A stretch of DNA of 47,463 bases, from positions 1 to 47,463 of the forward strand of contig CAMRBT010000001.1 in NCBI GenBank assembly GCA_947040475.1. The letters are read 5' to 3'. The notes under the pieces were generated by a model. That model was not told the origin of the DNA, did no database searches, and was given only the letters and a program-made list of their open reading frames with translations. Below, piece by piece: positions 4,957 through 38,504 of the stretch; within the stretch, counting starts at the first letter, position 1, and each line of letters starts with the position of its first letter. Origin of the DNA: an uncultured Brevinema sp. (GTDB taxonomy: Bacteria; Spirochaetota; Brevinematia; Brevinematales; Brevinemataceae). Position numbers and translations under genes: made by a program.

Positions 4957-6930
4957 TTATTTATTGATTTTTTCTTCAACAGGTATATAGCGACCATTAA
5001 AGACAACTCCGTGTACATTTAAATCGTCATCTAATATAGTGATATTAGCTTTATAACCAGCCTTAATGTAGCCATACTCATCGTCTTTTTTAATAGATCT
5101 AGCTGGGTAAAGAGAAGCCATTCTAAAAGCATCTTCTAAAGGCACTTTGACATATTTTACTAAGTTCTGAACACATTTGTCCATCAAGATCGCTACCCCC
5201 GCTAAAGTGCCATCTTCAGCGACACATTTGCCATCTCTATGATAAATTTTTCGTCCACCAAATTCAAATTCTTCTATATCTGTCCCTGCTGGTGCAGCGG
5301 CATCACTAACGAGAAAAAGGTGATCGCCTAATGATTTATAAGCAACATCTACAGAAGCATAGTTACTATGGATTCCATCCACAATAATCCCTGCATAAAT
5401 ATTATCATTTTCTAAGACTGTTCCTACTGCACCAGGTTCTCTGGAGTCCATAGGGCTCATCGCATTATATAAATGAGTTGCCATGGTAATCCCATGAGGG
5501 ATTTTTTCTTTTAATTGATTGTGAGTACCATTGGTATGACCCATAGATACAATCACCCCACCATCTGCTAATTTTTTAATGTCTTCTGCTGTATTTTCTT
5601 CTGGTGCTAGAGTAAGGATTTTTCTGTCTATTTTAGCGTTAATAATAGCATCTAACATTTCTTGAGAAGGTTTTCTAATATGTTCTATGGCATGAATTCC
5701 TTTTTTCATTTTAGAAAGATAAGGACCTTCAAAATGCCAAGCAATAATTCCTAAGATATTTTTATTTTCTATATGATTAATAAGATTTATAGCTTCTAAT
5801 ATTTTTTCATCACTATTAGTAATAAAGGTAGGTGCGTAACTAGTAACCCCATGTTTAAGATTTGTTTCAAACATTACTTGGAGAGCATCAATGGATATAT
5901 CATAATTAATATCTGCTCCACCACAACCATTAACTTGAAGATCTATATATCCAGGAACAATAGTTTTTCCTTTAAGATCTATTTTAGACATTACGATATC
6001 TGAAGAAGCATCCATTTCTATACTTTTGATTCTATCATTTTCGATAATTACTGTTGCATTATCAAGGAATTTTTCACCATCAAATACTCTAGCATTAACT
6101 AAAGCATAATAAGATTTGTATAAGCCTTTGATTAAAATTTTAGGATGAATACTTTTTGATTCTACTTCTTTATGATAACGATAGGTTCTTAATCTAATAT
6201 CGGCTACGGCATCTTCACTAGCAACAAATGTTGCTTTTGTATGCATTTGCAATGCTGAAGCAGGATAGAGGTGATTGATTCCCTCTTCAATACTTACCTG
6301 CAATGCTCTAGATTTATTAGCTCCCTGAGCTAATACTATAATTTCTTCCGCATCTAGGAGTGTTCCAACACCAATAGTTAAAGCAACTTTAGGAACTAAA
6401 TCTAAATTACCATTAAAAAATTTCGCATTCGCAACACGGGTTTCAAAGGCTAATTCTTTATCTCTTGTACGTGATTGTAAGGAAGATCCAGGTTCGTTAA
6501 AGGCTAAATGCCCATCATCGCCCAAACCACAAACCCATAAATTAACACCACCATAAGATTTGATTAATTCTTCATAACGTAGTGCTTCTTCTTTGATATC
6601 TTCTGCCAAAGCATTTAGTAAATGAATATTTTTTACTTGAGCATCAACAAAATTGAAAAAATTTGTATTAATAGTTGAAGAAAAACTATTAACATTGGTA
6701 GGATCTATTCCTAGATATTCCCCTGTATTAAAAAAAACTACATTTTTAAAACTTAATACACCATCTTGATGGAATTGAACAAGTCTTTTGTACATAGGTA
6801 GGACAGTTCCACCACCCGGTATTCCTAAAACAAAAGGTTTGTCTTCCGTTGGGGCAAAATCAAGTATTCTTTTTGCAATAAAATATGCAGACCAATCGCC
6901 AACGTGTTCTTCTGTTATAATTAATCTCAT
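4957..6930 (-). CDS. Fusion protein: glucosamine-6-phosphate deaminase-like domain (N-terminal, NagB) plus N-acetylglucosamine-6-phosphate deacetylase domain (C-terminal, NagA)
   Basis: The N-terminal ~260 aa align colinearly with NagB (MRLII..., GLGDDGHLAFNEPGSSLQSRTR, ALTIGVGTLLDAEE). The C-terminal ~390 aa align with NagA (YIDLQVNGCGG, HFEGPYLS, SMGHTN, ATHLYNAM, LVSDAAAPAG). Confidence 0.9.
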   Translation of the reverse strand: MRLIITEEHVGDWSAYFIAKRILDFAPTEDKPFVLGIPGGGTVLPMYKRLVQFHQDGVLSFKNVVFFNTGEYLGIDPTNVNSFSSTINTNFFNFVDAQVKNIHLLNALAEDIKEEALRYEELIKSYGGVNLWVCGLGDDGHLAFNEPGSSLQSRTRDKELAFETRVANAKFFNGNLDLVPKVALTIGVGTLLDAEEIIVLAQGANKSRALQVSIEEGINHLYPASALQMHTKATFVASEDAVADIRLRTYRYHKEVESKSIHPKILIKGLYKSYYALVNARVFDGEKFLDNATVIIENDRIKSIEMDASSDIVMSKIDLKGKTIVPGYIDLQVNGCGGADINYDISIDALQVMFETNLKHGVTSYAPTFITNSDEKILEAINLINHIENKNILGIIAWHFEGPYLSKMKKGIHAIEHIRKPSQEMLDAIINAKIDRKILTLAPEENTAEDIKKLADGGVIVSMGHTNGTHNQLKEKIPHGITMATHLYNAMSPMDSREPGAVGTVLENDNIYAGIIVDGIHSNYASVDVAYKSLGDHLFLVSDAAAPAGTDIEEFEFGGRKIYHRDGKCVAEDGTLAGVAILMDKCVQNLVKYVKVPLEDAFRMASLYPARSIKKDDEYGYIKAGYKANITILDDDLNVHGVVFNGRYIPVEEKINK

Positions 6931-6978: not shown

Positions 6979-7731
6979 TTATTCGTTAATTAAGGTAGTC
7001 AAGGATCTGCTAGCAACTTTATCTACCATAAAAGTAGTTTTAGGATGCATTTGTAAGACAGATGCAGGACTCATATCCGAGATCGCTTTTTCTAAACAAG
7101 ATTTAAGTGCAAACGCTTTATGGACACCATATACAACAATCAGAATTTCTTTAGCTTCACAAATCGTTCCCACACCCATTGTTAAGGCTTGGGAAGGAAC
7201 TCTAGCTATATCGCCACCAAAAAATCGGGCATCAGCTTTGAGAGTTTCTGAGGTTAATGTTTTTAATCGTGTTCGAGAATGTAAGGAAGACCCTTGTTCA
7301 TTAAATGCTAATTCTCCCATAGCTCCTAAAGATCCTAAGAAAAAATCTATTCCACCAACATCTTTAATTTTTTGTTCATATTGTTCACATTCTAAAGAAA
7401 GATTTTCGGCAGTTCCATTTAAAGTATAAATATTTTTAGGAGAGATATCAATTTTAGAAAAGAATTTCTCTTGCAATTGTTTAAAATAATCTTGCTGTTT
7501 AACTTGTGAATATCCCACAAACTCACCCGCATAAAAAATAATAACATTCTTGAGAGATACCTTTTTTTCTTGTACATAGCGTGCAAGCTCTTCACAGATA
7601 CTTAGCACGGTAAATCCTGTAGACAAACTCAATACAAAATATTCTTTTTGATTGTTATTAATTTTATCAACGATTTTTTGAACCGCAGATTTTACAATTT
7701 CATCTCTATTAAGGAGCACTTTTACTTTCAT
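6979..7731 (-). CDS. NagB/6-phosphogluconolactonase-family paralogue with degenerate active-site residues
   Basis: Colinear with NagB (LAFNEQGSSLHSRTRLKTLT, ALTMGVGTICEAKE). I prefer the ATG at 7731, which has GAGGGTG 7 nt upstream, over the track start at 7758. Confidence 0.75.
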   Translation of the reverse strand: MKVKVLLNRDEIVKSAVQKIVDKINNNQKEYFVLSLSTGFTVLSICEELARYVQEKKVSLKNVIIFYAGEFVGYSQVKQQDYFKQLQEKFFSKIDISPKNIYTLNGTAENLSLECEQYEQKIKDVGGIDFFLGSLGAMGELAFNEQGSSLHSRTRLKTLTSETLKADARFFGGDIARVPSQALTMGVGTICEAKEILIVVYGVHKAFALKSCLEKAISDMSPASVLQMHPKTTFMVDKVASRSLTTLINE

Positions 7732-7860
7732 TATCACACCCTCATATTTTTTGATCATAAATAATCATAGCATATTTTTGATTTTATGCAAATCTAAATT
7801 ACAAAATATATGTGTACTTCAATAAATAATAAGCATATAATTTATTTATTTAACTATTTA

Positions 7861-10160: not shown

Positions 10161-10913
10161 ATGTCATTCATTGGTGTCTTTGATTCAGGTCTTGGAGGTT
10201 TAAGTGTTCTCAAACATCTTCACCAACAATTTCCTCACGAAGAATTCGTTTATCTTGCCGATTCTCAGAATATTCCTTATGGTGAGAAAAATACAAATCA
10301 ATTAAAAGAAATATTCAACCATAATATTAACTGTTTCAAAAAGGCCAAAGGCATTGTTGTGGCTTGTAGTACGATAAGTAGTTTGATCCCCGAAATAAGC
10401 CCTCCAAAAATTCCTGTATACAGTATTATTGATTCTTTAGTGCAAACATATACTCAAGAATTTAGTGACATTAAGAATATCGGCATTCTTGCGACATCTT
10501 TTACAGTAGAGCATGGTGCTTATTTAAATGCTTTTAATCAGGCTAATTTTAGTGCAAATATTACACAAATTGCAGCACCACTACTAGTGCCTGCCATAGA
10601 AAATAATGCAGACAATATTGTAGAAATATTAGATCAATATATTGCTCAATTTCCTAATAACATTAAACATTTAATCTTAGGTTGTACACATTATAATTTA
10701 TTATTAGAAAAATTTCAACAGAACTATAAAAATTTAACAATAATAAATCCCTATAGTGGAATTATACAACAAGTATCATCTATTATTTCTAAAGAAAAAA
10801 CAGATATTATCAAACCTCTTGTGTTTTTAACGACCAAATATAGTGAGAACTTGCAAAAAATTTCAGAAGAAATAATGCAACAAGATATTATTTGGGAATC
10901 TATTTCTCTCTAA
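10161..10913 (+). CDS. murI: Glutamate racemase
   Basis: Motifs GVFDSGLGGLSV, VVACSTISS and LGCTHYNLL (both catalytic Cys motifs). Confidence 0.9.
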   Translation: MSFIGVFDSGLGGLSVLKHLHQQFPHEEFVYLADSQNIPYGEKNTNQLKEIFNHNINCFKKAKGIVVACSTISSLIPEISPPKIPVYSIIDSLVQTYTQEFSDIKNIGILATSFTVEHGAYLNAFNQANFSANITQIAAPLLVPAIENNADNIVEILDQYIAQFPNNIKHLILGCTHYNLLLEKFQQNYKNLTIINPYSGIIQQVSSIISKEKTDIIKPLVFLTTKYSENLQKISEEIMQQDIIWESISL

Positions 10914-10945
10914 AATTCACTTCATATCAATATCTAGGAGATATC

Positions 10946-12001
10946 ATGAATAAAAAAATCATTGTATTTATCACTTTACTATGTACTCTATCTATCAACA
11001 CTCCCGCAGCTGTCGTCAATCAAATTATAGTTAGTGTAGGCAGTATCGCTATTACTAGTTTTGACATTGCTCGTATGCGTGACTTTGAAGCTATTATTGC
11101 TCAAAAACGACCTACTTCCAACGAAGCCTTAGAAAAACTTATTACTTTATCTTCTTTGTTAGTAATTGCAGAAAATAATTCCGATTATTATATGGACGAA
11201 GTAGAGTTAAGAAAACAAATTGGCACTATGACAAACAATCCTTCAGACCCAAATAGTCCCCAACGTAAAAAATTATACGAAGATTATAGTGACTTATATA
11301 GAATGCTCATCAGATCAGATAAAGTCAAAAAAGGATTGATGTTTGGTGATGTCCATGTAAAAGCAGAAATTAACAAACCTATTCCTATAGGAGAATCTAA
11401 GGCATTCTACAACAAAAACAAAGCTCAATTTAAAGATTCTCCCTTCCCAAAATTCAATCTTATTATTTTTGCAGTAGCAGCCTCAGACAAATGGACTTTA
11501 ACAGAACTTTCTGAAGTAGAAACAAAAATGCAAGCACTTGCTAAAGATCTTGATACTTCTAATAATTTTAATGCCCTAAAAAAGAAATATTCTTCTTTAC
11601 GATTTACTGCCTTTTCTGGAGCTACAGGATTATTCACTCCCGATATTCTTATTCTTCAAAAGAAAATCCCCGATGAAATTCTAGGAATTGCTCTTCAACC
11701 TTCTTTGAATTTGGGTGGAGCTCCTATTCCTATTGTTAAAAATAAAGGGATTTTTATTCCTCAGCCTATTCCTTTTAGAAGTACAGGGGTATCTACTTAT
11801 CTCACCATGAAAATCCTTGATGTTGTTCAACCACAACAACTTAGCTTAGATATCGCATTACCAAGAGTAGAAGAAATGATCAAATACGAAAGAGCTGAAA
11901 AAGCAATAGATAAATCTATCAAAAAGAGAATAGCCGAAGGTGAGATCACTCTCACTCCTTCCGATAATAGCTACAAAAATGTTTTTAACAAATTTAAATA
12001 A
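10946..12001 (+). CDS. Secreted SurA-N-like periplasmic chaperone / degenerate PPIase-like protein
   Basis: I prefer the ATG at 10946 with AGGAG 5 nt upstream. It has a signal peptide (MNKKIIVFITLLCTLSINTPAA) and a SurA N-domain-like start (VNQIIVSVGSIAITSFDI). I could not see a convincing rotamase motif. Confidence 0.45.
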   Translation: MNKKIIVFITLLCTLSINTPAAVVNQIIVSVGSIAITSFDIARMRDFEAIIAQKRPTSNEALEKLITLSSLLVIAENNSDYYMDEVELRKQIGTMTNNPSDPNSPQRKKLYEDYSDLYRMLIRSDKVKKGLMFGDVHVKAEINKPIPIGESKAFYNKNKAQFKDSPFPKFNLIIFAVAASDKWTLTELSEVETKMQALAKDLDTSNNFNALKKKYSSLRFTAFSGATGLFTPDILILQKKIPDEILGIALQPSLNLGGAPIPIVKNKGIFIPQPIPFRSTGVSTYLTMKILDVVQPQQLSLDIALPRVEEMIKYERAEKAIDKSIKKRIAEGEITLTPSDNSYKNVFNKFK

Positions 12002-30405: not shown

Positions 30406-30882
30406 ATGGCATTAGAATCTATCAAAAAAGAAATTGGAAAGGAAATCGAAGCAACTAAATGCTTTGTAGAGCTCGCAATCGCTGCTCAAAAATGTGGCTA
30501 TACCAAAGCTGCTAAATTCTTCATCTCAGAAGCACAAGAAGATTGTGAACATGCCTTTTTATATGCAAGAGAATTAGATAAATATAGTGGGATTTTAGAT
30601 GACGATAGAAATATCGTAGAAATCACCAAAGCTTTTTATGAGCTTGAATATGGTGCTATAGAAAGAATTAGTGAAATGTATAAAGAAGCCCACAAAGAGG
30701 ATCTTCGTAGTATTCATCCTTTCCTTTCAAAAATGATGGGTAAACACACTGAAGATTGTTACAGAGCTAAAAAACTCCTCCAAAAAATCGAAGTTTTATT
30801 TTCAGCAGATTCTCTATCCGATATAGAAACTTTATTTGAAGATGAACAAGATGAAGATGATAACAATCTCATAGATAACTAA
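30406..30882 (+). CDS. Ferritin-like four-helix-bundle protein, paralogue 1 (acidic C-terminal tail)
   Basis: Helix pattern and motif ...SEAQEDCEHAF... resemble the ferritin/rubrerythrin superfamily. Clearly paralogous to the next gene. Confidence 0.5.
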   Translation: MALESIKKEIGKEIEATKCFVELAIAAQKCGYTKAAKFFISEAQEDCEHAFLYARELDKYSGILDDDRNIVEITKAFYELEYGAIERISEMYKEAHKEDLRSIHPFLSKMMGKHTEDCYRAKKLLQKIEVLFSADSLSDIETLFEDEQDEDDNNLIDN

Positions 30883-30952: not shown

Positions 30953-31405
30953 ATGGCATTACAATTGGTAAAAGACGAAGTCTTAAAAGAAATGGAAGCA
31001 GTGAAGTGTTTTATTGATCTAGCTATCAAAGCACAAAAAGCTGGCTACGAAAAAGCTGCAGAATATTTTTTAGCACAAGCTAGAGAAGATTGTGGACACG
31101 CTTTTAACTATGCTAAAGAATTAGATAAATACGGTGAAGTTCCTGGAGACATGACTATCACTAGTATCGTTCAAAAATTCGTAGACTTAGAAAAAGGTGC
31201 TGTCACTAGAGTTTTAGCAATTCAAGATGAAATGGTAGCAGAAAATAACAAAGGACTAGCTCCTTTTGTATTACATGTTTTACAAGATCATTCTGACGAA
31301 GCATACGTAGCTCAAAAACTTCTTCAAAAAGTAGCTGTTCTTGACAAACAAGAAGCTCTTAATGATATTGAAGAATTATTTGCTCAATTATTAGAAAAAG
31401 AATAA
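30953..31405 (+). CDS. Ferritin-like four-helix-bundle protein, paralogue 2
   Basis: Roughly half of the positions are identical by eye to the preceding gene (MALxxxKxE...VKCF..LAI.AQK.GY.KAA..F...A.EDC.HAF.YA.ELDKY). Confidence 0.5.
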   Translation: MALQLVKDEVLKEMEAVKCFIDLAIKAQKAGYEKAAEYFLAQAREDCGHAFNYAKELDKYGEVPGDMTITSIVQKFVDLEKGAVTRVLAIQDEMVAENNKGLAPFVLHVLQDHSDEAYVAQKLLQKVAVLDKQEALNDIEELFAQLLEKE

Positions 31406-33268: not shown

Positions 33269-33289
33269 AAATAAATCTCAAATAAAAAA

Positions 33290-33313
33290 CCCCCAAAATT
33301 TTGGGGGTTTTTT
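33290..33313. terminator. Bidirectional terminator between the ASST-like gene and moxR
   Basis: Perfect palindrome cccccaaaattttggggg flanked by A6 and T6. Confidence 0.85.
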
Positions 33314-33355: not shown

Positions 33356-34339
33356 TTAAGGTATCTCTACTCTTTGTAGAATTTGATCGATAAGAGTATC
33401 TGAAGTTAGTCCCTCAGCCTCAGCTTCAAAAGAAATCAACAATCTATGTCTTAATACTTCATGAGCAACACCTTTTATGTCTTCAGGAATCACATAAGCT
33501 CTTCCATCAAAAAATGCTTCTGCTTTGGCAGCTTTAAGGAATGCTAAAGAAGCTCTTGGAGATGCTCCAGCACGAATATATTCAGATTTGATTTGTACTG
33601 ATTCAGGCTCTCTAGTCGCATAAACAAGATTAACAATATATTCCATGATTTTTTCATCAGCATAAATTTGTTTAACAAAATTCTGTAAATCAAGAACTTG
33701 TTCTTTGGAAATAACTTTTTTCGGTTCTGGAATATGCAATCCACCCATACGAGAAATAATTCTTTTTTCTTCAGCTCTGGTTGGGTAATTAGCAATTACT
33801 TTTAATAAGAATCTATCCATTTGCGCTTCTGGAAGTGGATAAGTTCCTTCTTGTTCTATAGGGTTTTGAGTAGCCATTACCAAGAATGGATCTGGCAATT
33901 GATAAGTATTATCCCCAATAGTGATCGTTTTTTCTTGCATCGCTTCTAATAATGCTGCTTGCACTTTTGCTGGAGCACGATTGATTTCATCGGCTAAAAC
34001 AAAGTTTGTAAAGACAGGACCTTGCTTTACTTCAAAGTTACCAGTACCTTGATTATAAATTAGCGTTCCTCTAATATCTGCAGGCAACATATCAGGAGTA
34101 AATTGGATTCTATTAAAATCTAAATCTAAAATTTTTGCAAGTGTACTAATAGACAATGTTTTTGCTAATCCTGGTAACCCTTCTATAAGAATATGACCAC
34201 CGGTCAATAAACCCATCATCAAATATTTATAGACTGATTTTTGTCCTACAATAACTTTTTCGTATTCTAGTTCAATTTGATTGAGTATTTCTTTTTTTTC
34301 TACTGCTAATTCTGTAATACGACGAATGTCCATATCCAT
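33356..34339 (-). CDS. MoxR-family AAA+ ATPase
   Basis: 327 aa. Walker A GLPGLAKT, Walker B FVLADEINRA, MATQNPIEQEGTYPLPEAQMDRF and the C-terminal lid GASPRA. Confidence 0.92.
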   Translation of the reverse strand: MDMDIRRITELAVEKKEILNQIELEYEKVIVGQKSVYKYLMMGLLTGGHILIEGLPGLAKTLSISTLAKILDLDFNRIQFTPDMLPADIRGTLIYNQGTGNFEVKQGPVFTNFVLADEINRAPAKVQAALLEAMQEKTITIGDNTYQLPDPFLVMATQNPIEQEGTYPLPEAQMDRFLLKVIANYPTRAEEKRIISRMGGLHIPEPKKVISKEQVLDLQNFVKQIYADEKIMEYIVNLVYATREPESVQIKSEYIRAGASPRASLAFLKAAKAEAFFDGRAYVIPEDIKGVAHEVLRHRLLISFEAEAEGLTSDTLIDQILQRVEIP

Positions 34340-34369: not shown

Positions 34370-34906
34370 TTAATAACTAATCATTGATAAAATGCCTAAA
34401 ATAAATAATTTTAAAGCATAAGTATGTTTTGGATTCAATCTATGAAAATTAAAGTTAATACTAATAGCCGTAATAGTACATAAAACAGCCATAAATCCTA
34501 AGCCCAATCCTAAAGAATACACCATACTATCCACCGCATTAAAATCTTTTGCTATAATTACAGAAAAAACTAGGGGCAAAATAGCATCGCCTCTACGAAT
34601 AAATCCTATAACGGTATCTTCTAAACGGGATTTTGGTAATAAAAATCCTATAATCACACTCAATATCACTTCAAATCCAATTAAAACAATCAAGAGAAAT
34701 AATTCTTTTCCAGGAAAATTAAAAAATGGTCTTAGATTAATCATAATAACCGTTTGAATCAGTATAAAAGTAATCAATCTCAAACCAACCCAAAAGGATT
34801 CGCTCAAAGTATAAGTAAATAATACAATAACACCCAATCCTACCGCATGCCACACAAATATATTTTCAAAAAACATGCCTGAAACTAAAATATCTATTAA
34901 ATTCAT
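34370..34906 (-). CDS. RnfA/NqrE-like integral membrane protein (highly divergent)
   Basis: 178 aa, six hydrophobic spans, colinear with RnfA (ENIFVWHAVGLG ~ NNFVLVKFLGLC; ILPLVFSVII ~ FLPLITTNCA; GILSMISY ~ GLMSLAF). An ATGA overlap links it to the upstream gene. Confidence 0.5.
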   Translation of the reverse strand: MNLIDILVSGMFFENIFVWHAVGLGVIVLFTYTLSESFWVGLRLITFILIQTVIMINLRPFFNFPGKELFLLIVLIGFEVILSVIIGFLLPKSRLEDTVIGFIRRGDAILPLVFSVIIAKDFNAVDSMVYSLGLGLGFMAVLCTITAISINFNFHRLNPKHTYALKLFILGILSMISY

Positions 34907-35532
34907 TGTGTGTTTTCTCCTTTATCAGAACGAAAGAATCCCATAAATCCAATAAGTATAGCAATAATAAAAAAGATCATTGCTCTCATATTAATAGCTG
35001 ATAACCAAAATATTTTTGTATTTTTAATGGTATTTTCAAAACTTTCAAAAATAGAATCTCCACCAAAAATAAAAATTTCACCAAAAGCTCCAAATTTAAA
35101 ATTTAATGATCCATGTAAAACAATATCTCTCACACAAGAAAACAGAACAACTAAGATAGCAGAGATAAATGCTTCGACAAAAGGGGCTGATTCTCTATCA
35201 TTTTCATGATCTTCTAACCATCCTATTAACATAGAGGATGCTGTCATCGATGCAGGAAAAATTAAGGCTAATTCTTTGTATAAAGCCCAATCTACCATAC
35301 CGATTAATAAAACATAAAAAGTCCCACCACATACTCCAAAAAAAGAAGTAATATAAAAAGCGTCAGTTGTATGAATTCTTTTTTTTAATAAATCAACAAT
35401 CATTGATAAAAAAGGATAAAGAATTAAAACCCCCACCCCTGCCACAACACCTTGATAAGCACTATTCATCGTAAAAATTAGAGGATATAGACAAAATCTA
35501 ACTAATGGACCATGGGCTATTTGTTGTTTCAT
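34903..35532 (-). CDS. RnfE/NqrD-like integral membrane protein (highly divergent)
   Basis: Colinear with RnfE (RFCLYPLIF ~ LLGLCPLLA; ALIFPASMTASSMLIGW ~ GIFIPLIVTNCIVVGR; VRDIVLHGSLNF ~ LREIIGNGTLF). I prefer the ATG at 35532 with AAGGA upstream over the GTG at 35562. Confidence 0.5.
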   Translation of the reverse strand: MKQQIAHGPLVRFCLYPLIFTMNSAYQGVVAGVGVLILYPFLSMIVDLLKKRIHTTDAFYITSFFGVCGGTFYVLLIGMVDWALYKELALIFPASMTASSMLIGWLEDHENDRESAPFVEAFISAILVVLFSCVRDIVLHGSLNFKFGAFGEIFIFGGDSIFESFENTIKNTKIFWLSAINMRAMIFFIIAILIGFMGFFRSDKGENTQ

Positions 35533-35533
35533 A

Positions 35534-37162
35534 TTATATTCCTTTATTCGTGGTAAATTCACTATAAATTACAGACCCTTTTCTAAAAGCATCTATGATT
35601 CTATGACTTACAAGAGGATTTTTACTACTATATTTTTCTATTTCTGTATCATTTAATATTTCTGTCATCTTATTAATATCTTTACCTATTAATAATTGCC
35701 TTAATCTCATATCAATAAAAAAAGAATGAGCCGTTTTTAATTGTACGACTTTTACTTCTTTGATAATGTTATCTTTTACTAAGATCAATATATTAATATA
35801 GGTTCTATACAAACTGGAATCGCTGTTAATAATATAAGACATTTCGCCTTGAGTGTCCTCTGCTTGGAAAATATTTTTATTAAGGTCTATTTTTTGAACA
35901 CGATAATCAGGAAAAATTTCTGCTACAATATTCAGAAAATATTGATCTTCTCTTTGTTTGAAAGTATCATTAGGAAGAAAACTCACATTAATAAGAACAC
36001 TAGTTATCATCAACAAACCAATACTAATTCTTATAACATATCTTTTTGATATTTTAAATCTTGATTTGAAATTTTGAAAGGTATTGATTGTTAGTTTAGG
36101 GGTTCCAAAAACAGATCTTTTGGAAATAATTTCTATTAAAGAAGCACTAATATTCATTATTATTGCAGCAAAAATATGATTAATAACATAGTTAGATCTA
36201 AAAAACATCATTGAAGCGATTATGGCAGTAATAATAGTAGCAATATATCTGCCTCTTTTATTATTAATAGGAATATTGCTAGCAATAATAAATACAGCAA
36301 AAAACCATAAAGAGAGATTGTATACAAATCCTTGTATTAAAATATTCATCGCATTAGGAGTGCCTATGAGTTGAAAATAATAGATTAATAAAAAAACAAA
36401 GCTATACAGTATAGGTATAACAGGATCTATAATTTTATTGAAAGATAACAGTACATAAGCTAATAAAACAATGACAATAGAGCCAAGCCCTATATTGTAA
36501 GAGTAAGGGCTAAGAATCATAGAGAATAAATTGCCAGAATTTTGTGTTAAACTGTCTGTATAATTTTTTATTAAATCGGTATAAGCTACAATACCATTAT
36601 TGTATAAAAATGCTTTTTCAGGTACTTCAGCAATAATATGATTTGCGTCTATTAATGCGGTTAAAAAAGAAGGATTCCCTAGTGTTGTATTAGCTTCTTG
36701 TATCATAGGAACAAGGTAAAATAAGGTGAAAGTTGGTTCACTCATATAGATAGAAACAGTGGTAGAGCCTGCTAATATTCCTAATAACACAGGAGAAATA
36801 ATAGGTCTTCCCTGTACTGATAGCACGCTAGAACCAACTATCATCATGACGATAACACCTAAAACATTAGCATAGATAGATATTTGAGGAGAAAGAATAA
36901 GAACGTAGCTAATTACAGATATATGCCATAATAAACTATTAAAAAAGAGTGCTTTGTTAAAAAATTGGTACACCCACACAATAATATATGCTGTAAAATA
37001 AGCAATACATAATTGTTTGAGGACACTATATCCAAAAAAGAACAGAGAACAGAACAAGACAAAATATAAAATCAAAAGATGTTTTTTGTGTTGATCTTCT
37101 ATTGTTCTTGTATGATGAAGAAAAGGTGCTTCAGAGACTACTTTATCAAAAACTTTAAGCAT
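35534..37162 (-). CDS. RnfD-like membrane domain fused to an RnfG-like periplasmic domain (divergent)
   Basis: The first ~360 aa are polytopic and colinear with RnfD (EAPFLHH ~ SSPYTH; ...FIIASNIPINNKRGRYI ~ FILTDPVTASTTNRGRLI). One further TM segment and a ~170-aa soluble tail follow, laid out like RnfG/NqrC. Confidence 0.5.
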   Translation of the reverse strand: MLKVFDKVVSEAPFLHHTRTIEDQHKKHLLILYFVLFCSLFFFGYSVLKQLCIAYFTAYIIVWVYQFFNKALFFNSLLWHISVISYVLILSPQISIYANVLGVIVMMIVGSSVLSVQGRPIISPVLLGILAGSTTVSIYMSEPTFTLFYLVPMIQEANTTLGNPSFLTALIDANHIIAEVPEKAFLYNNGIVAYTDLIKNYTDSLTQNSGNLFSMILSPYSYNIGLGSIVIVLLAYVLLSFNKIIDPVIPILYSFVFLLIYYFQLIGTPNAMNILIQGFVYNLSLWFFAVFIIASNIPINNKRGRYIATIITAIIASMMFFRSNYVINHIFAAIIMNISASLIEIISKRSVFGTPKLTINTFQNFKSRFKISKRYVIRISIGLLMITSVLINVSFLPNDTFKQREDQYFLNIVAEIFPDYRVQKIDLNKNIFQAEDTQGEMSYIINSDSSLYRTYINILILVKDNIIKEVKVVQLKTAHSFFIDMRLRQLLIGKDINKMTEILNDTEIEKYSSKNPLVSHRIIDAFRKGSVIYSEFTTNKGI

Positions 37163-38393
37163 TAGACTGATCCTTTATTATCATTTGACCCTCTTTGATG
37201 AGTTTTCCTAAGGGAATAAACGAGGGACAAACATAACTACATAAATTACAATTAATACATTCTTTCAAATGATTTTCCAAAGCTCTATCATATTCTTTAT
37301 GCTTTATAAAATCTACTAATTTTACTGGCTCAAGTCTAATAGGGCAAACTTCTACACAAGCGGAACAATAACTACAAAGTAATTCTTCTGGAGGAGTATT
37401 GGTTCCTTCAAAAATCATTATTGCATTCATATTTTTCGTAGTGCCTTTTTGTTTTTCTAATGGTAGCCCTTGAAGAGGGCCTCCAGAAAACATTACATAG
37501 GAATTTTCTAAGGAAAAAGGACGCATAAATTTAGCAATAGGAGTACCGATTTTTACACGAAAAATGCCATGTGATAGGCTATAAGCCCCATCTACTGCTA
37601 TTACTCTATCAGTCACTGGTTTATTATAAAATAAGGCTTCGTAAATAGCATAGAATACAGTAGGCGAAAACACCACCAATCCTGCATCAGAGCAAAGGTC
37701 TGATTTATTTAATTCTTTATTAAAAAGCTTATTAATCAGTAGTTTATCATCATTCAAAGGATAACAACTATCTAACTCTACCACTGTTTTTTTATCGTCA
37801 AAAATAAACTGTTCTATTGTGTCTTTAAGTTGTTTATCTTTGGAGATGGCAAAAACAATATTTTTAGCACCTAACATTAATCTTAATTGATGGGCTATCT
37901 GCATAATTTCTCTAGTTTTTTCTAATAAAAGTACATAGTCCCCTACAACAAAGGGCTCTCCATCAACAGCATTAATCACAATAGTTTCTATTTTACGTTG
38001 CTCATAAGCTTTTGTTACTTTTTCATGAATGGCATATTCGCTATCATATTCTTCTAATCCATTAATTCCAGCATCATATATTTTTTTGATTATAATATCT
38101 GCTGACAATCCCACAGGAGTGGTTAAGTCATATATTTTTGGAGTAATAGTTTTATCTCTTTCTAAAACAAGATATTGTTGTTCTTGATGTTGTTGTATTT
38201 CTTTTATTATTCCTGCTACAGGGCTATGAGTTAAAAGATGCTTTTGAGAATTAGAGGTTAAAACTTGTCCTTCAGAAACGAGATCACCTACAGAAACGTG
38301 AAGCTCACTATCAACAGTAATAAAATAAAAATCATGAATGTTATCATTTTGAATAGATTTATTTTTGCATCGATCTTGAGAAACTAGATTCAT
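37155..38393 (-). CDS. RnfC-like protein with two 4Fe-4S ferredoxin motifs (divergent)
   Basis: N-terminal barrel-sandwich motif VSVGDLVSEGQVL...HSPVAGIIKEI. Further motifs INAVDGEPFVVGDYVLL, SGGPLQG, and the two clusters CSYCSACVEVCP and CINCNLCSYVCP. I prefer the ATG at 38393 with AGGAG upstream over the GTG at 38420. Confidence 0.6.
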   Translation of the reverse strand: MNLVSQDRCKNKSIQNDNIHDFYFITVDSELHVSVGDLVSEGQVLTSNSQKHLLTHSPVAGIIKEIQQHQEQQYLVLERDKTITPKIYDLTTPVGLSADIIIKKIYDAGINGLEEYDSEYAIHEKVTKAYEQRKIETIVINAVDGEPFVVGDYVLLLEKTREIMQIAHQLRLMLGAKNIVFAISKDKQLKDTIEQFIFDDKKTVVELDSCYPLNDDKLLINKLFNKELNKSDLCSDAGLVVFSPTVFYAIYEALFYNKPVTDRVIAVDGAYSLSHGIFRVKIGTPIAKFMRPFSLENSYVMFSGGPLQGLPLEKQKGTTKNMNAIMIFEGTNTPPEELLCSYCSACVEVCPIRLEPVKLVDFIKHKEYDRALENHLKECINCNLCSYVCPSFIPLGKLIKEGQMIIKDQSNA

Positions 38394-38504
38394 TATTACT
38401 CCTATTTTCTTATAGAACACTTTCTATTATTATATCATATTAGCACAAAAAGTCAATATATTCAAAGTATTCTCATTAAATTTGTAAAAAAAATGAATAA
38501 TTCA

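Follow-up and report, generated by a model that had tools for sequence, protein, structure and literature searches.

Introduction

Among redox-driven ion pumps Rnf and Nqr are textbook cases, and their covalent flavins and the metal centre of subunits A and E are treated as strictly conserved. The present work deals with an Rnf-like operon which departs from this scheme. It is located on a stretch of 47,463 nucleotides from an uncultured Brevinema sp. (assembly GCA_947040475.1, contig CAMRBT010000001.1, positions 1 to 47,463 of the forward strand), the whole of which is called the window throughout. The central gene of the operon, a minus-strand open reading frame (ORF) at positions 35534–37162, encodes a fusion of RnfD and RnfG of 542 amino acids. 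The original prediction, made from the sequence alone, was that D and G are joined here in one polypeptide, that neither part retains the motif for covalent attachment of flavin mononucleotide (FMN), and that this speaks against the canonical electron path through these subunits, a claim which was supported by every test made.

In the Rnf complex electrons are passed from ferredoxin through RnfB, RnfA/E, the FMN of RnfG, the FMN of RnfD, riboflavin and RnfC to NAD+ (PMC9588780). According to the same work four invariant cysteines form the RnfA/RnfE metal centre, with Cys25 and Cys113 as the RnfA pair, the FMN of Clostridium tetanomorphum RnfD is attached to Thr153 and surrounded by Arg130 and Glu185, Asn124 and Asp248 of RnfD belong to the site of riboflavin and the proposed site of Na+, and the FMN-bearing Thr164 of RnfG is found at the N-terminus of the terminal helix (PMC9588780). 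The complexes of C. tetanomorphum (7ZC6), A. vinelandii (8AHX) and A. woodii (9ERI) were used as comparators. The locus of the window shares with them the gene order C-D-G-E-A, significant homology of RnfC, RnfD and RnfA, the folds of RnfD and RnfG, and an RnfC ferredoxin domain with two [4Fe-4S] motifs. It differs in that D and G form one polypeptide, no rnfB is present in the operon and a moxR gene is appended, that both acceptor threonines, the aspartate of the riboflavin/Na+ site and the RnfA cysteines are missing, that the FMN loop of RnfC is degenerate, and that the protein at the position of RnfE is not recognisable as RnfE. Of the cofactor sites tested in the window complex none is intact except the RnfC clusters. 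The complex appears to be built from Rnf parts but, judged from its residues, would work unlike Rnf.

The nearest precedent is NqrA of the Na+-translocating NADH:quinone oxidoreductase (Na+-NQR), a homologue of RnfC which has lost its cofactors and is still an essential and conserved subunit. There, however, NqrA alone is free of cofactors and NqrF supplies a new input module, whereas in the window the membrane subunits are stripped too and the operon shows nothing that could serve as a substitute module. A further related group are the FMN_bind (PF04205) domains flavinylated by ApbE, which occur in extracytosolic electron-transfer systems (survey PMC8238504; review PMC12052999). The G part of the fusion resembles them in being membrane-anchored and of the same fold and, in the model described below, in a predicted location at the outer membrane face, but has neither an [S/T]GA[S/T] motif nor a Pfam match. 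In the literature searched no description of a D–G fusion or of a flavin-less Rnf was found, in Brevinema or elsewhere.

Architecture and Fold of the Fusion Protein

Residues 9–353 of the fusion protein match the Pfam family PF03116 (NQR2_RnfD_RnfE) with 58.1 bits at a gathering score of 27.7, and a profile of the family searched against sequences of solved structures found RnfD of A. vinelandii (8ahx_D) with an E-value of 8.5e-19 and also matched NqrB. An AlphaFold model of the 542 amino acids was built from an alignment of 122 sequences which included canonical RnfD sequences and reached a mean predicted local distance difference test (pLDDT) of 85.3, while an earlier model from an alignment of 10 sequences, with a pLDDT of 41, was unusable. 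The model yielded the ten-helix fold of RnfD, and comparison by Foldseek with RnfD and NqrB chains, among them the RnfD chains 9eri_D, 8ahx_D and 7zc6_D, gave target-normalised TM-scores of 0.71–0.79. The RnfD-like part on the basis of these results comprises residues 1–355 (36098..37162, minus strand). It is followed by a basic linker and a single transmembrane anchor, residues 356–397 (35972..36097, minus strand), with a hydrophobic stretch at about 373–397 and a helix modelled at 373–394, which corresponds to the N-terminal anchor of RnfG. The fusion is, in the model, topologically neutral, with a predicted cytoplasmic basic linker leading into the G-type anchor helix and from there into the G domain.

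The tail after the anchor, residues 398–542 (35537..35971, minus strand), is an RnfG/NqrC-like soluble domain without the FMN_bind signature, assigned by transitive homology, Foldseek and a profile of the tails. These 145 amino acids are modelled as a helix, five strands and further helices including a long terminal one (helix 373–394 of the anchor, strands within 421–476, helix 516–539), a transmembrane anchor, a beta-rich domain and a long C-terminal helix being the layout of RnfG and NqrC. In Foldseek, RnfG/NqrC chains were found with probabilities up to 1.0 (0.96–1.0 for the best-ranked chains), with E-values for the whole query of just 0.05–0.5, and the RnfG matches of the tail, 8ahx_G and 8rb9_G, had probabilities of 0.99–1.0. 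By sequence the tail of the window alone has no Pfam match, with none to PF04205 even at E <= 1, and no match in the Protein Data Bank (PDB), and its score against canonical RnfG sequences is below zero. The link is provided by the orthologues: four of nine orthologue tails match PF04205 (best E-value 7.4e-9), a profile of the tails matches the FMN-binding domain 8p2b_A with an E-value of 1.8e-4, and with a hidden Markov model (HMM) made from the flavin-less tails those of more distant orthologues score 29–75 bits, where none of 2100 shuffled control sequences exceeded 12 bits. The fusion passes the fold test for RnfG and fails the RnfG sequence-model test. The architecture which had been predicted, an RnfD-like polytopic N-terminal part, one further transmembrane segment and a tail laid out like RnfG/NqrC in a single polypeptide, is confirmed by the Pfam match, the hydropathy, the model, Foldseek and the HMM of the orthologue tails.

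Flavin Attachment Sites and Pocket Residues

The patterns [ST]G[AVSG][TS], ATP and [AS][TS]P[LM] gave no match over the whole 542 amino acids, in agreement with the prediction that no SGAT- or TGAT-like string occurs in the protein. The E. coli strings with which the protein had been compared, ISQATPL and FILTDPVT of RsxD and FTGATITPRAV of RsxG, are correct. In the D part the former FMN site is the segment AFLYNNG, residues 184–190 (36593..36613, minus strand), where the acceptor threonine aligns to alanine 184 with HMMER or to asparagine 189 with MAFFT. The predicted absence of the D motif was therefore right, whereas the aligned position lies a few residues downstream of the string that had been quoted, a shift which leaves the conclusion unchanged because there is neither serine nor threonine among residues 170–194. 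The acceptor threonine is conserved in 97% of 102 canonical RnfD sequences.

The pocket around the flavins is changed as well. The residues equivalent to those of C. tetanomorphum RnfD are isoleucine 129 for Arg130, which follows NPA(L)xG, leucine 226 for Glu185 of the GETS motif, serine 295 for Asp248 of the TD motif, and serine 123 for Asn124. None of the strictly conserved arginine, glutamate and aspartate, which are 100% conserved in the 102 canonical sequences, is kept in the window protein. As had been predicted, the signature FILTDPVT is altered to FIIASNIPI, which is located at residues 291–299 (36266..36292, minus strand) in place of F(M/I)(A/L)TDPVT and includes the change of the aspartate to serine 295. 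Of the 107 columns with at least 80% conservation among the 102 canonical sequences of RnfD, 23 are retained in the window protein, 21–32 in the other flavin-less members of the family, and 41–48 in the relatives with flavin sites.

In the G part the former FMN site is SKNPL, residues 513–517 (35612..35626, minus strand), whose counterpart in the alignments is SGAT in the orthologues and TGAT in RsxG. The four residues S/T-G-A-T correspond to lysine 514, asparagine 515, proline 516 and leucine 517, with proline 516 or leucine 517 in the acceptor column. In the model the terminal helix starts at residue 516, and the equivalent of Thr164 is proline 516. The ETPGLG-type loop of G is replaced too. 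The alignments, and the mapping of the D part onto the C. tetanomorphum structure, placed no conserved acceptor threonine in either domain, and the G part lacks an acceptor motif as had been claimed.

Several other residues were considered as acceptors and rejected. Threonine 195 in VAYTDL aligns with the canonical lysine column after ATPL, is a valine in the relative P0008 and is unconserved in other flavin-less lineages. The string AGST at residues 131–134 is inside a transmembrane helix and unconserved, and serines 512, 513 and 519 near the former G site are not in a G-A/S-[ST] context. Mutants of NqrB-T236 or NqrC-T225 in Vibrio cholerae Na+-NQR reportedly lose the corresponding FMN, as described by Barquera and co-workers. 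The fusion protein would, on the basis of its aligned residues, carry no covalent flavin.

The Operon and its Other Subunits

The fusion gene is part of a tightly packed minus-strand unit from 38456 to 33284 containing rnfC, rnfDG, the gene at the E position, rnfA and moxR, and the erosion of cofactor sites in this unit is wider than originally seen, since it extends to the pocket residues of D, the RnfA cysteines and the FMN loop of RnfC. The rnfC-like gene (37155..38393, minus strand) encodes 412 amino acids when started from the ATG at 38393, which is preceded by an AGGAG ribosome binding site and gives a length like that of the orthologues, the mechanical call of the ORF being the GTG at 38420. 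It scores 226.6 bits with TIGR01945, below the cut-off of 246, and its family profile finds RnfC 7zc6_C with an E-value of 3e-62 and NqrA with 4e-8. The ferredoxin domain keeps two CxxCxxCxxxCP motifs for two [4Fe-4S] clusters, and cysteines 349, 352, 355, 359, 388, 391, 394 and 398 are invariant across the members. In NuoF-type domains FMN is bound by a GxGGAxFPT loop. In the window this glycine-rich loop reads GLEEYDSEY instead of GLGGAGFPT. Seven of the eight members compared have a degenerate loop, the sequence GLGGEGLPA of the locus L005 being closest to the canonical form. The stop of the rnfC-like gene overlaps the start of the fusion gene by 8 nucleotides, in ATGCTTAA.

The gene at the E position (34903..35532, minus strand), assigned by position and hydropathy, starts after a gap of 1 nucleotide behind the stop of the fusion gene and encodes a polytopic membrane protein of 209 amino acids from the ATG at 35532, a length which is also seen in an orthologue. 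The mechanical starts of this ORF and of the rnfC-like ORF (35562 and 38420) are probably too far upstream. A homology to RnfE was sought and had to be rejected: there was no match in Pfam, which was run on all members, in NCBIfam, or by profile in the PDB, comparison with RsxE gave an hhalign E-value of 0.18 and an HMM score of 1.3 bits, which is below shuffled controls, and hhalign with the A-like family failed as well. With RnfE the protein shares no more than its place in the operon, its size and hydropathy, and a short motif, R(D/E)I..(H/N)G(S/T)L. The gene is conserved in all loci (for example at L002 11678–12298, L005 11635–12252 and L008 7301–7915) with aspartate 91, tryptophans 92 and 115, glutamate 130, cysteine 143 and arginine 145 invariant. 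In a weak alignment no conserved cysteine is found at the positions of the RnfE ligands. Either this protein is an RnfE which has diverged to an extreme degree, or another protein has taken the place of RnfE.

The rnfA-like gene (34370..34906, minus strand; 178 amino acids) overlaps the E-position gene by 4 nucleotides. It matches PF02508 with 26.3 bits, its profile finds RnfA 7zc6_A with an E-value of 1e-3 and NqrE with 2e-3, and it scores 30 bits against canonical RnfA, the best shuffled sequence reaching 8. Both cysteines which serve as metal ligands in RnfA are lost, GICPF being aligned to GLGVI and TTNCAV to RRGDAI, and both positions are occupied by other residues in all seven clade members compared, including those which keep the flavin sites.

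Neither rnfB nor a gene for a polyferredoxin turned up in the operon, elsewhere in the 47 kb of the window or within 10 kb in nine related loci. Neither a ferredoxin nor ApbE is encoded in the window, and no ApbE/Ftp gene was found in the window or in the flanks of the related loci. In the locus of the relative P0032 a ferredoxin of 56 amino acids with two [4Fe-4S] motifs (L002 13983–14153), which has no counterpart in the window, directly follows moxR. With no RnfB encoded in these loci and no A/E centre, the clade therefore appears to be without the input half of the chain. Most members are also without the NAD(H) end, and the lineage of the window additionally lacks the two flavins in between.

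The probable last gene of the operon encodes a MoxR-type AAA+ ATPase (33356..34339, minus strand; PF07726, E-value 1.4e-64) and begins 30 nucleotides downstream of rnfA without a terminator in between. In every locus this distance is 19–46 nucleotides and no DUF58/VWA partner is nearby. The adjacency was not accepted as a sign of functional coupling with the Rnf-like genes, because the whole neighbourhood of 20 kb is syntenic across the clade and the linkage is not independent evidence. At the two ends of the unit are a promoter-like site, TTGACT-16-(TG)TATAAT (38429..38456, minus strand), found by consensus match alone, which has 11 of 12 consensus positions and an extended -10 element ending 9 nucleotides before the GTG at 38420, and a symmetrical hairpin A6C5 ... 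G5T6 (33284..33313), which is situated between the convergent moxR and arylsulfotransferase genes and is a probable bidirectional terminator.

Selection on the Rnf-Like Genes

Ratios of nonsynonymous to synonymous substitution rates (dN/dS) were calculated by the method of Nei and Gojobori (NG86) for the window against three relatives at dS values of 0.45–0.84. They are 0.14–0.19 for the rnfC-like gene, 0.18–0.24 for the whole fusion gene (0.17–0.22 in its D part and 0.16–0.28 in its G part), 0.04–0.20 for the E-position gene and 0.12–0.17 for the rnfA-like gene, with 0.14 for glgB as a control. All four Rnf-like genes are under purifying selection. Even the segments of the fusion which contain the former flavin sites are constrained, with dN/dS of 0.07–0.28. 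MoxR is 96–98% identical at the amino acid level with dN/dS of 0.03–0.04. Seen over the clade at large, the fusion protein is least conserved with 22–32% identity to the window, against 40–62% for the C, E and A proteins, of which the A-like and E-position proteins are the best conserved.

Relatives and the Order of Losses

About 20 proteins of 487–572 amino acids in assemblies from JGI, ENA, NCBI and Logan share the fused architecture. An exhaustive search of representatives with the fusion protein yielded just 14 hits, which consist of the close clade, a dozen fused proteins with 28–37% identity and one canonical RnfD (E-value 3e-4), and a search starting from the relative P0032 added one more fused protein, the rest being canonical RnfD proteins of 300–350 amino acids with at most 29% identity. 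The distant fused members had been missed by the search with a family profile and were reached via a library of representatives and an identity look-up. A scan of contigs with the single fusion protein found nothing, and a scan with the alignment A1 found one metagenome-assembled genome of an uncultured Brevinema sp., a close relative. Another close relative is annotated as "Spirochaetota bacterium, RnfABCDGE subunit D". From these searches the D–G fusion appears confined to one clade in the data covered.

Ten loci from the same four sources are syntenic over about 20 kb, none of them with rnfB, in the order TamB, BamA, FlaB, rod-binding protein, RecO-like protein, rnfC, fused DG, E-position gene, A, moxR, arylsulfotransferase, a ferritin-like pair and glgB. 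The fused proteins are therefore orthologues. A canonical comparator locus, L013, contains an rseC-rnfBCDGEA operon, and the layout of the window goes back to the common rnf(B)CDGEA order, from which rnfB, the stop of D and the start of G have disappeared.

The fused relatives P0032, P0045, P0040 and P0041 are like the window in the fusion, the operon, the absence of rnfB and of the A cysteines and the degenerate RnfC loop, but differ in having kept motifs at the flavin sites. Three of them (P0032, P0045, P0040) have STP or ATP followed by leucine at the D site and SGAT at the G site, and P0041 has ASP, with serine at the acceptor position, and SGVT. These site-keepers also retain GETS, arginine 167 and the match to PF04205, and the acidic residue of TD/TE is kept in P0032, P0045 and P0040 and replaced by asparagine in P0041. 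In P0037 the D site is lost and the G site is SGAT. Both sites are lost in the window clade and in P0030, P0031, P0034, P0035, P0036 and P0038. Since both sites persist in P0032, P0045 and P0040, which are fused as well, fusion and site loss are not coupled, and by this distribution the fusion is older than the loss of the flavin sites. In a neighbour-joining tree all of 100 bootstraps unite the flavin-less members with P0037, in which the G site alone is kept, and leave the site-keepers outside this clade, because of which loss of the D site is placed first. Loss of the G site followed and may have happened more than once.

Interpretation

The complex of the window almost certainly could not pass electrons between ferredoxin and NAD+ by the canonical route, as far as can be judged from the residues at its cofactor sites, and it is probably put to some other use. 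The best joint explanation, to which a probability of roughly 60% is given, is that the fusion is specific to this lineage and that the complex is a derivative of Rnf stripped of cofactors and retained for a non-canonical role. A tentative best guess on this role is a cofactor-less membrane module which may anchor the RnfC-like subunit with its iron-sulphur clusters and/or conduct or sense ions. The RnfA-like and E-position proteins, with their invariant charged residues and as the best-conserved subunits, would then form the functional core. Once the chain had been broken in the common ancestor, by the loss of RnfB and of the A/E metal site which all members of the clade share, the sites that remained were probably no longer needed, and these would have decayed stepwise afterwards, with the D site before the G site and the RnfC loop independently in different lineages.

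Several points weigh against this explanation. Binding of flavin without a covalent bond is compatible with the sequence. Genes for RnfB or ApbE or a second rnf or nqr operon could lie outside the 47 kb window. Homology of the E-position protein to RnfE is not demonstrable, so that the loss of its ligand cysteines is read from a weak alignment. The invariant cysteine 143 of the same protein and the RnfC clusters indicate that some redox or metal chemistry may persist. Finally, the neighbour-joining tree may be biased, since proteins without the motif columns appear more distant for that reason alone.

A more far-reaching proposal, which is possible and distinctly less probable than the joint explanation, is that all Rnf membrane subunits are kept without redox cofactors as an exapted 'pseudo-respiratory' machine, a non-redox device. 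Such a device may be a module which conducts or senses ions and is gated by the redox state of the iron-sulphur clusters of the RnfC-like protein, or a client or partner of MoxR.

It is unlikely that the complex is still an electron-transfer machine, which is the main rival reading. Such a complex would either work with a non-covalently bound flavin or another cofactor in the D and G pockets, covalent attachment having been abandoned, perhaps because ApbE had been lost, or pass electrons solely between the RnfC clusters and some partner. Such a machine would account for the eight cluster cysteines kept in every RnfC-like member, for the retained folds of D and G and for the purifying selection on the genes, and the site-keepers demonstrate that the fused architecture is compatible with flavins. 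Against it stands that not only the acceptors are gone: the equivalents of Arg130, Glu185, Asp248 and Asn124 and the ETPGLG-type loop of G are replaced, PF04205 has ceased to match the tail, the metal site of RnfA/E has gone, rnfB is missing from the operon and the window, and the FMN loop of RnfC has become acidic. The Nqr threonine mutants, as said above, reportedly lose the FMN.

Even less probable is a dying relic, that is, an operon which has lost its function and is just short of becoming a set of pseudogenes. The eroded cofactor sites in every subunit would fit with such a state, as would the fact that in the clade the fusion gene evolves faster than any other gene of the operon, but about 20 sequences from independent assemblies have an intact reading frame whose length is conserved, dN/dS values of 0.04–0.24 at dS of 0.45–0.8 are like those of glgB, the translational coupling is kept from the overlap of C with DG through the gap of a single nucleotide between DG and E to the overlap of E with A, and a strong promoter-like site is present. 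The idea that the tail has an origin other than RnfG and that misassembly or a frameshift has produced the fusion, to which the lack of a Pfam or PDB sequence match of the window tail and its score below zero against canonical RnfG could lead, is rejected in view of the same architecture in proteins from four sources of assemblies, of orthologue tails which match PF04205, carry SGAT and are linked to the window tail by 29–75 bits at a shuffled maximum of 12, of the RnfG/NqrC chains found by Foldseek with probabilities up to 1.0, and of the canonical gene order C-D-G-E-A.

Other Features of the Window

At 4957–6930 on the minus strand a protein of 657 amino acids is encoded which combines a NagB-type glucosamine-6-phosphate isomerase domain with a NagA amidohydrolase domain. 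It is adjoined by a second, stand-alone NagB-like gene (6979–7758, minus strand), and genes for EI, EIIA and EIIBC of the phosphotransferase system surround both. Two tandem paralogues of about 150 amino acids (30406–30882 and 30953–31405, plus strand) are weakly similar to ferritin and rubrerythrin, just below Pfam gathering scores, and in relatives ORFs of about 150–160 amino acids are found between the arylsulfotransferase gene and glgB, two each in L006 and L010 and one in L005. Between 39936 and 42201, on both strands, there are five small ORFs of 111–169 amino acids with hydrophobic N-termini, which in most cases are followed by a lipobox-like cysteine. No family could be assigned to them, and ORFs of similar size without family are found at the same position in related loci. 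A plus-strand ORF of 369 amino acids (10892–12001), which belongs to no recognised family, contains an SGAT string (FTAFSGATGLFT). This string was not regarded as meaningful, such strings occurring three times in the long ORFs of the window, which is about the frequency expected by chance.

Significance

The clade represents a graded natural series in which both, one or no flavin sites are present on the same fused scaffold in the same operon under selection. With this series one could examine which cofactors are required by the membrane core when it assembles and when it conducts ions, explore the new uses to which a respiratory complex with an interrupted electron path may be put, and set right the automatic annotation of these proteins. 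If the proposal of a non-redox device is true, the chain of RnfC iron-sulphur clusters, FMN of D and FMN of G in the site-keepers would be an undescribed electron route from the cytoplasm to the periplasm, and this shortened chain would run without RnfB and the A/E centre. Brevinema is common in the guts of fish and other animals, and the automatic name "RnfABCDGE subunit D" would credit it with a working Rnf pump in metabolic reconstructions.

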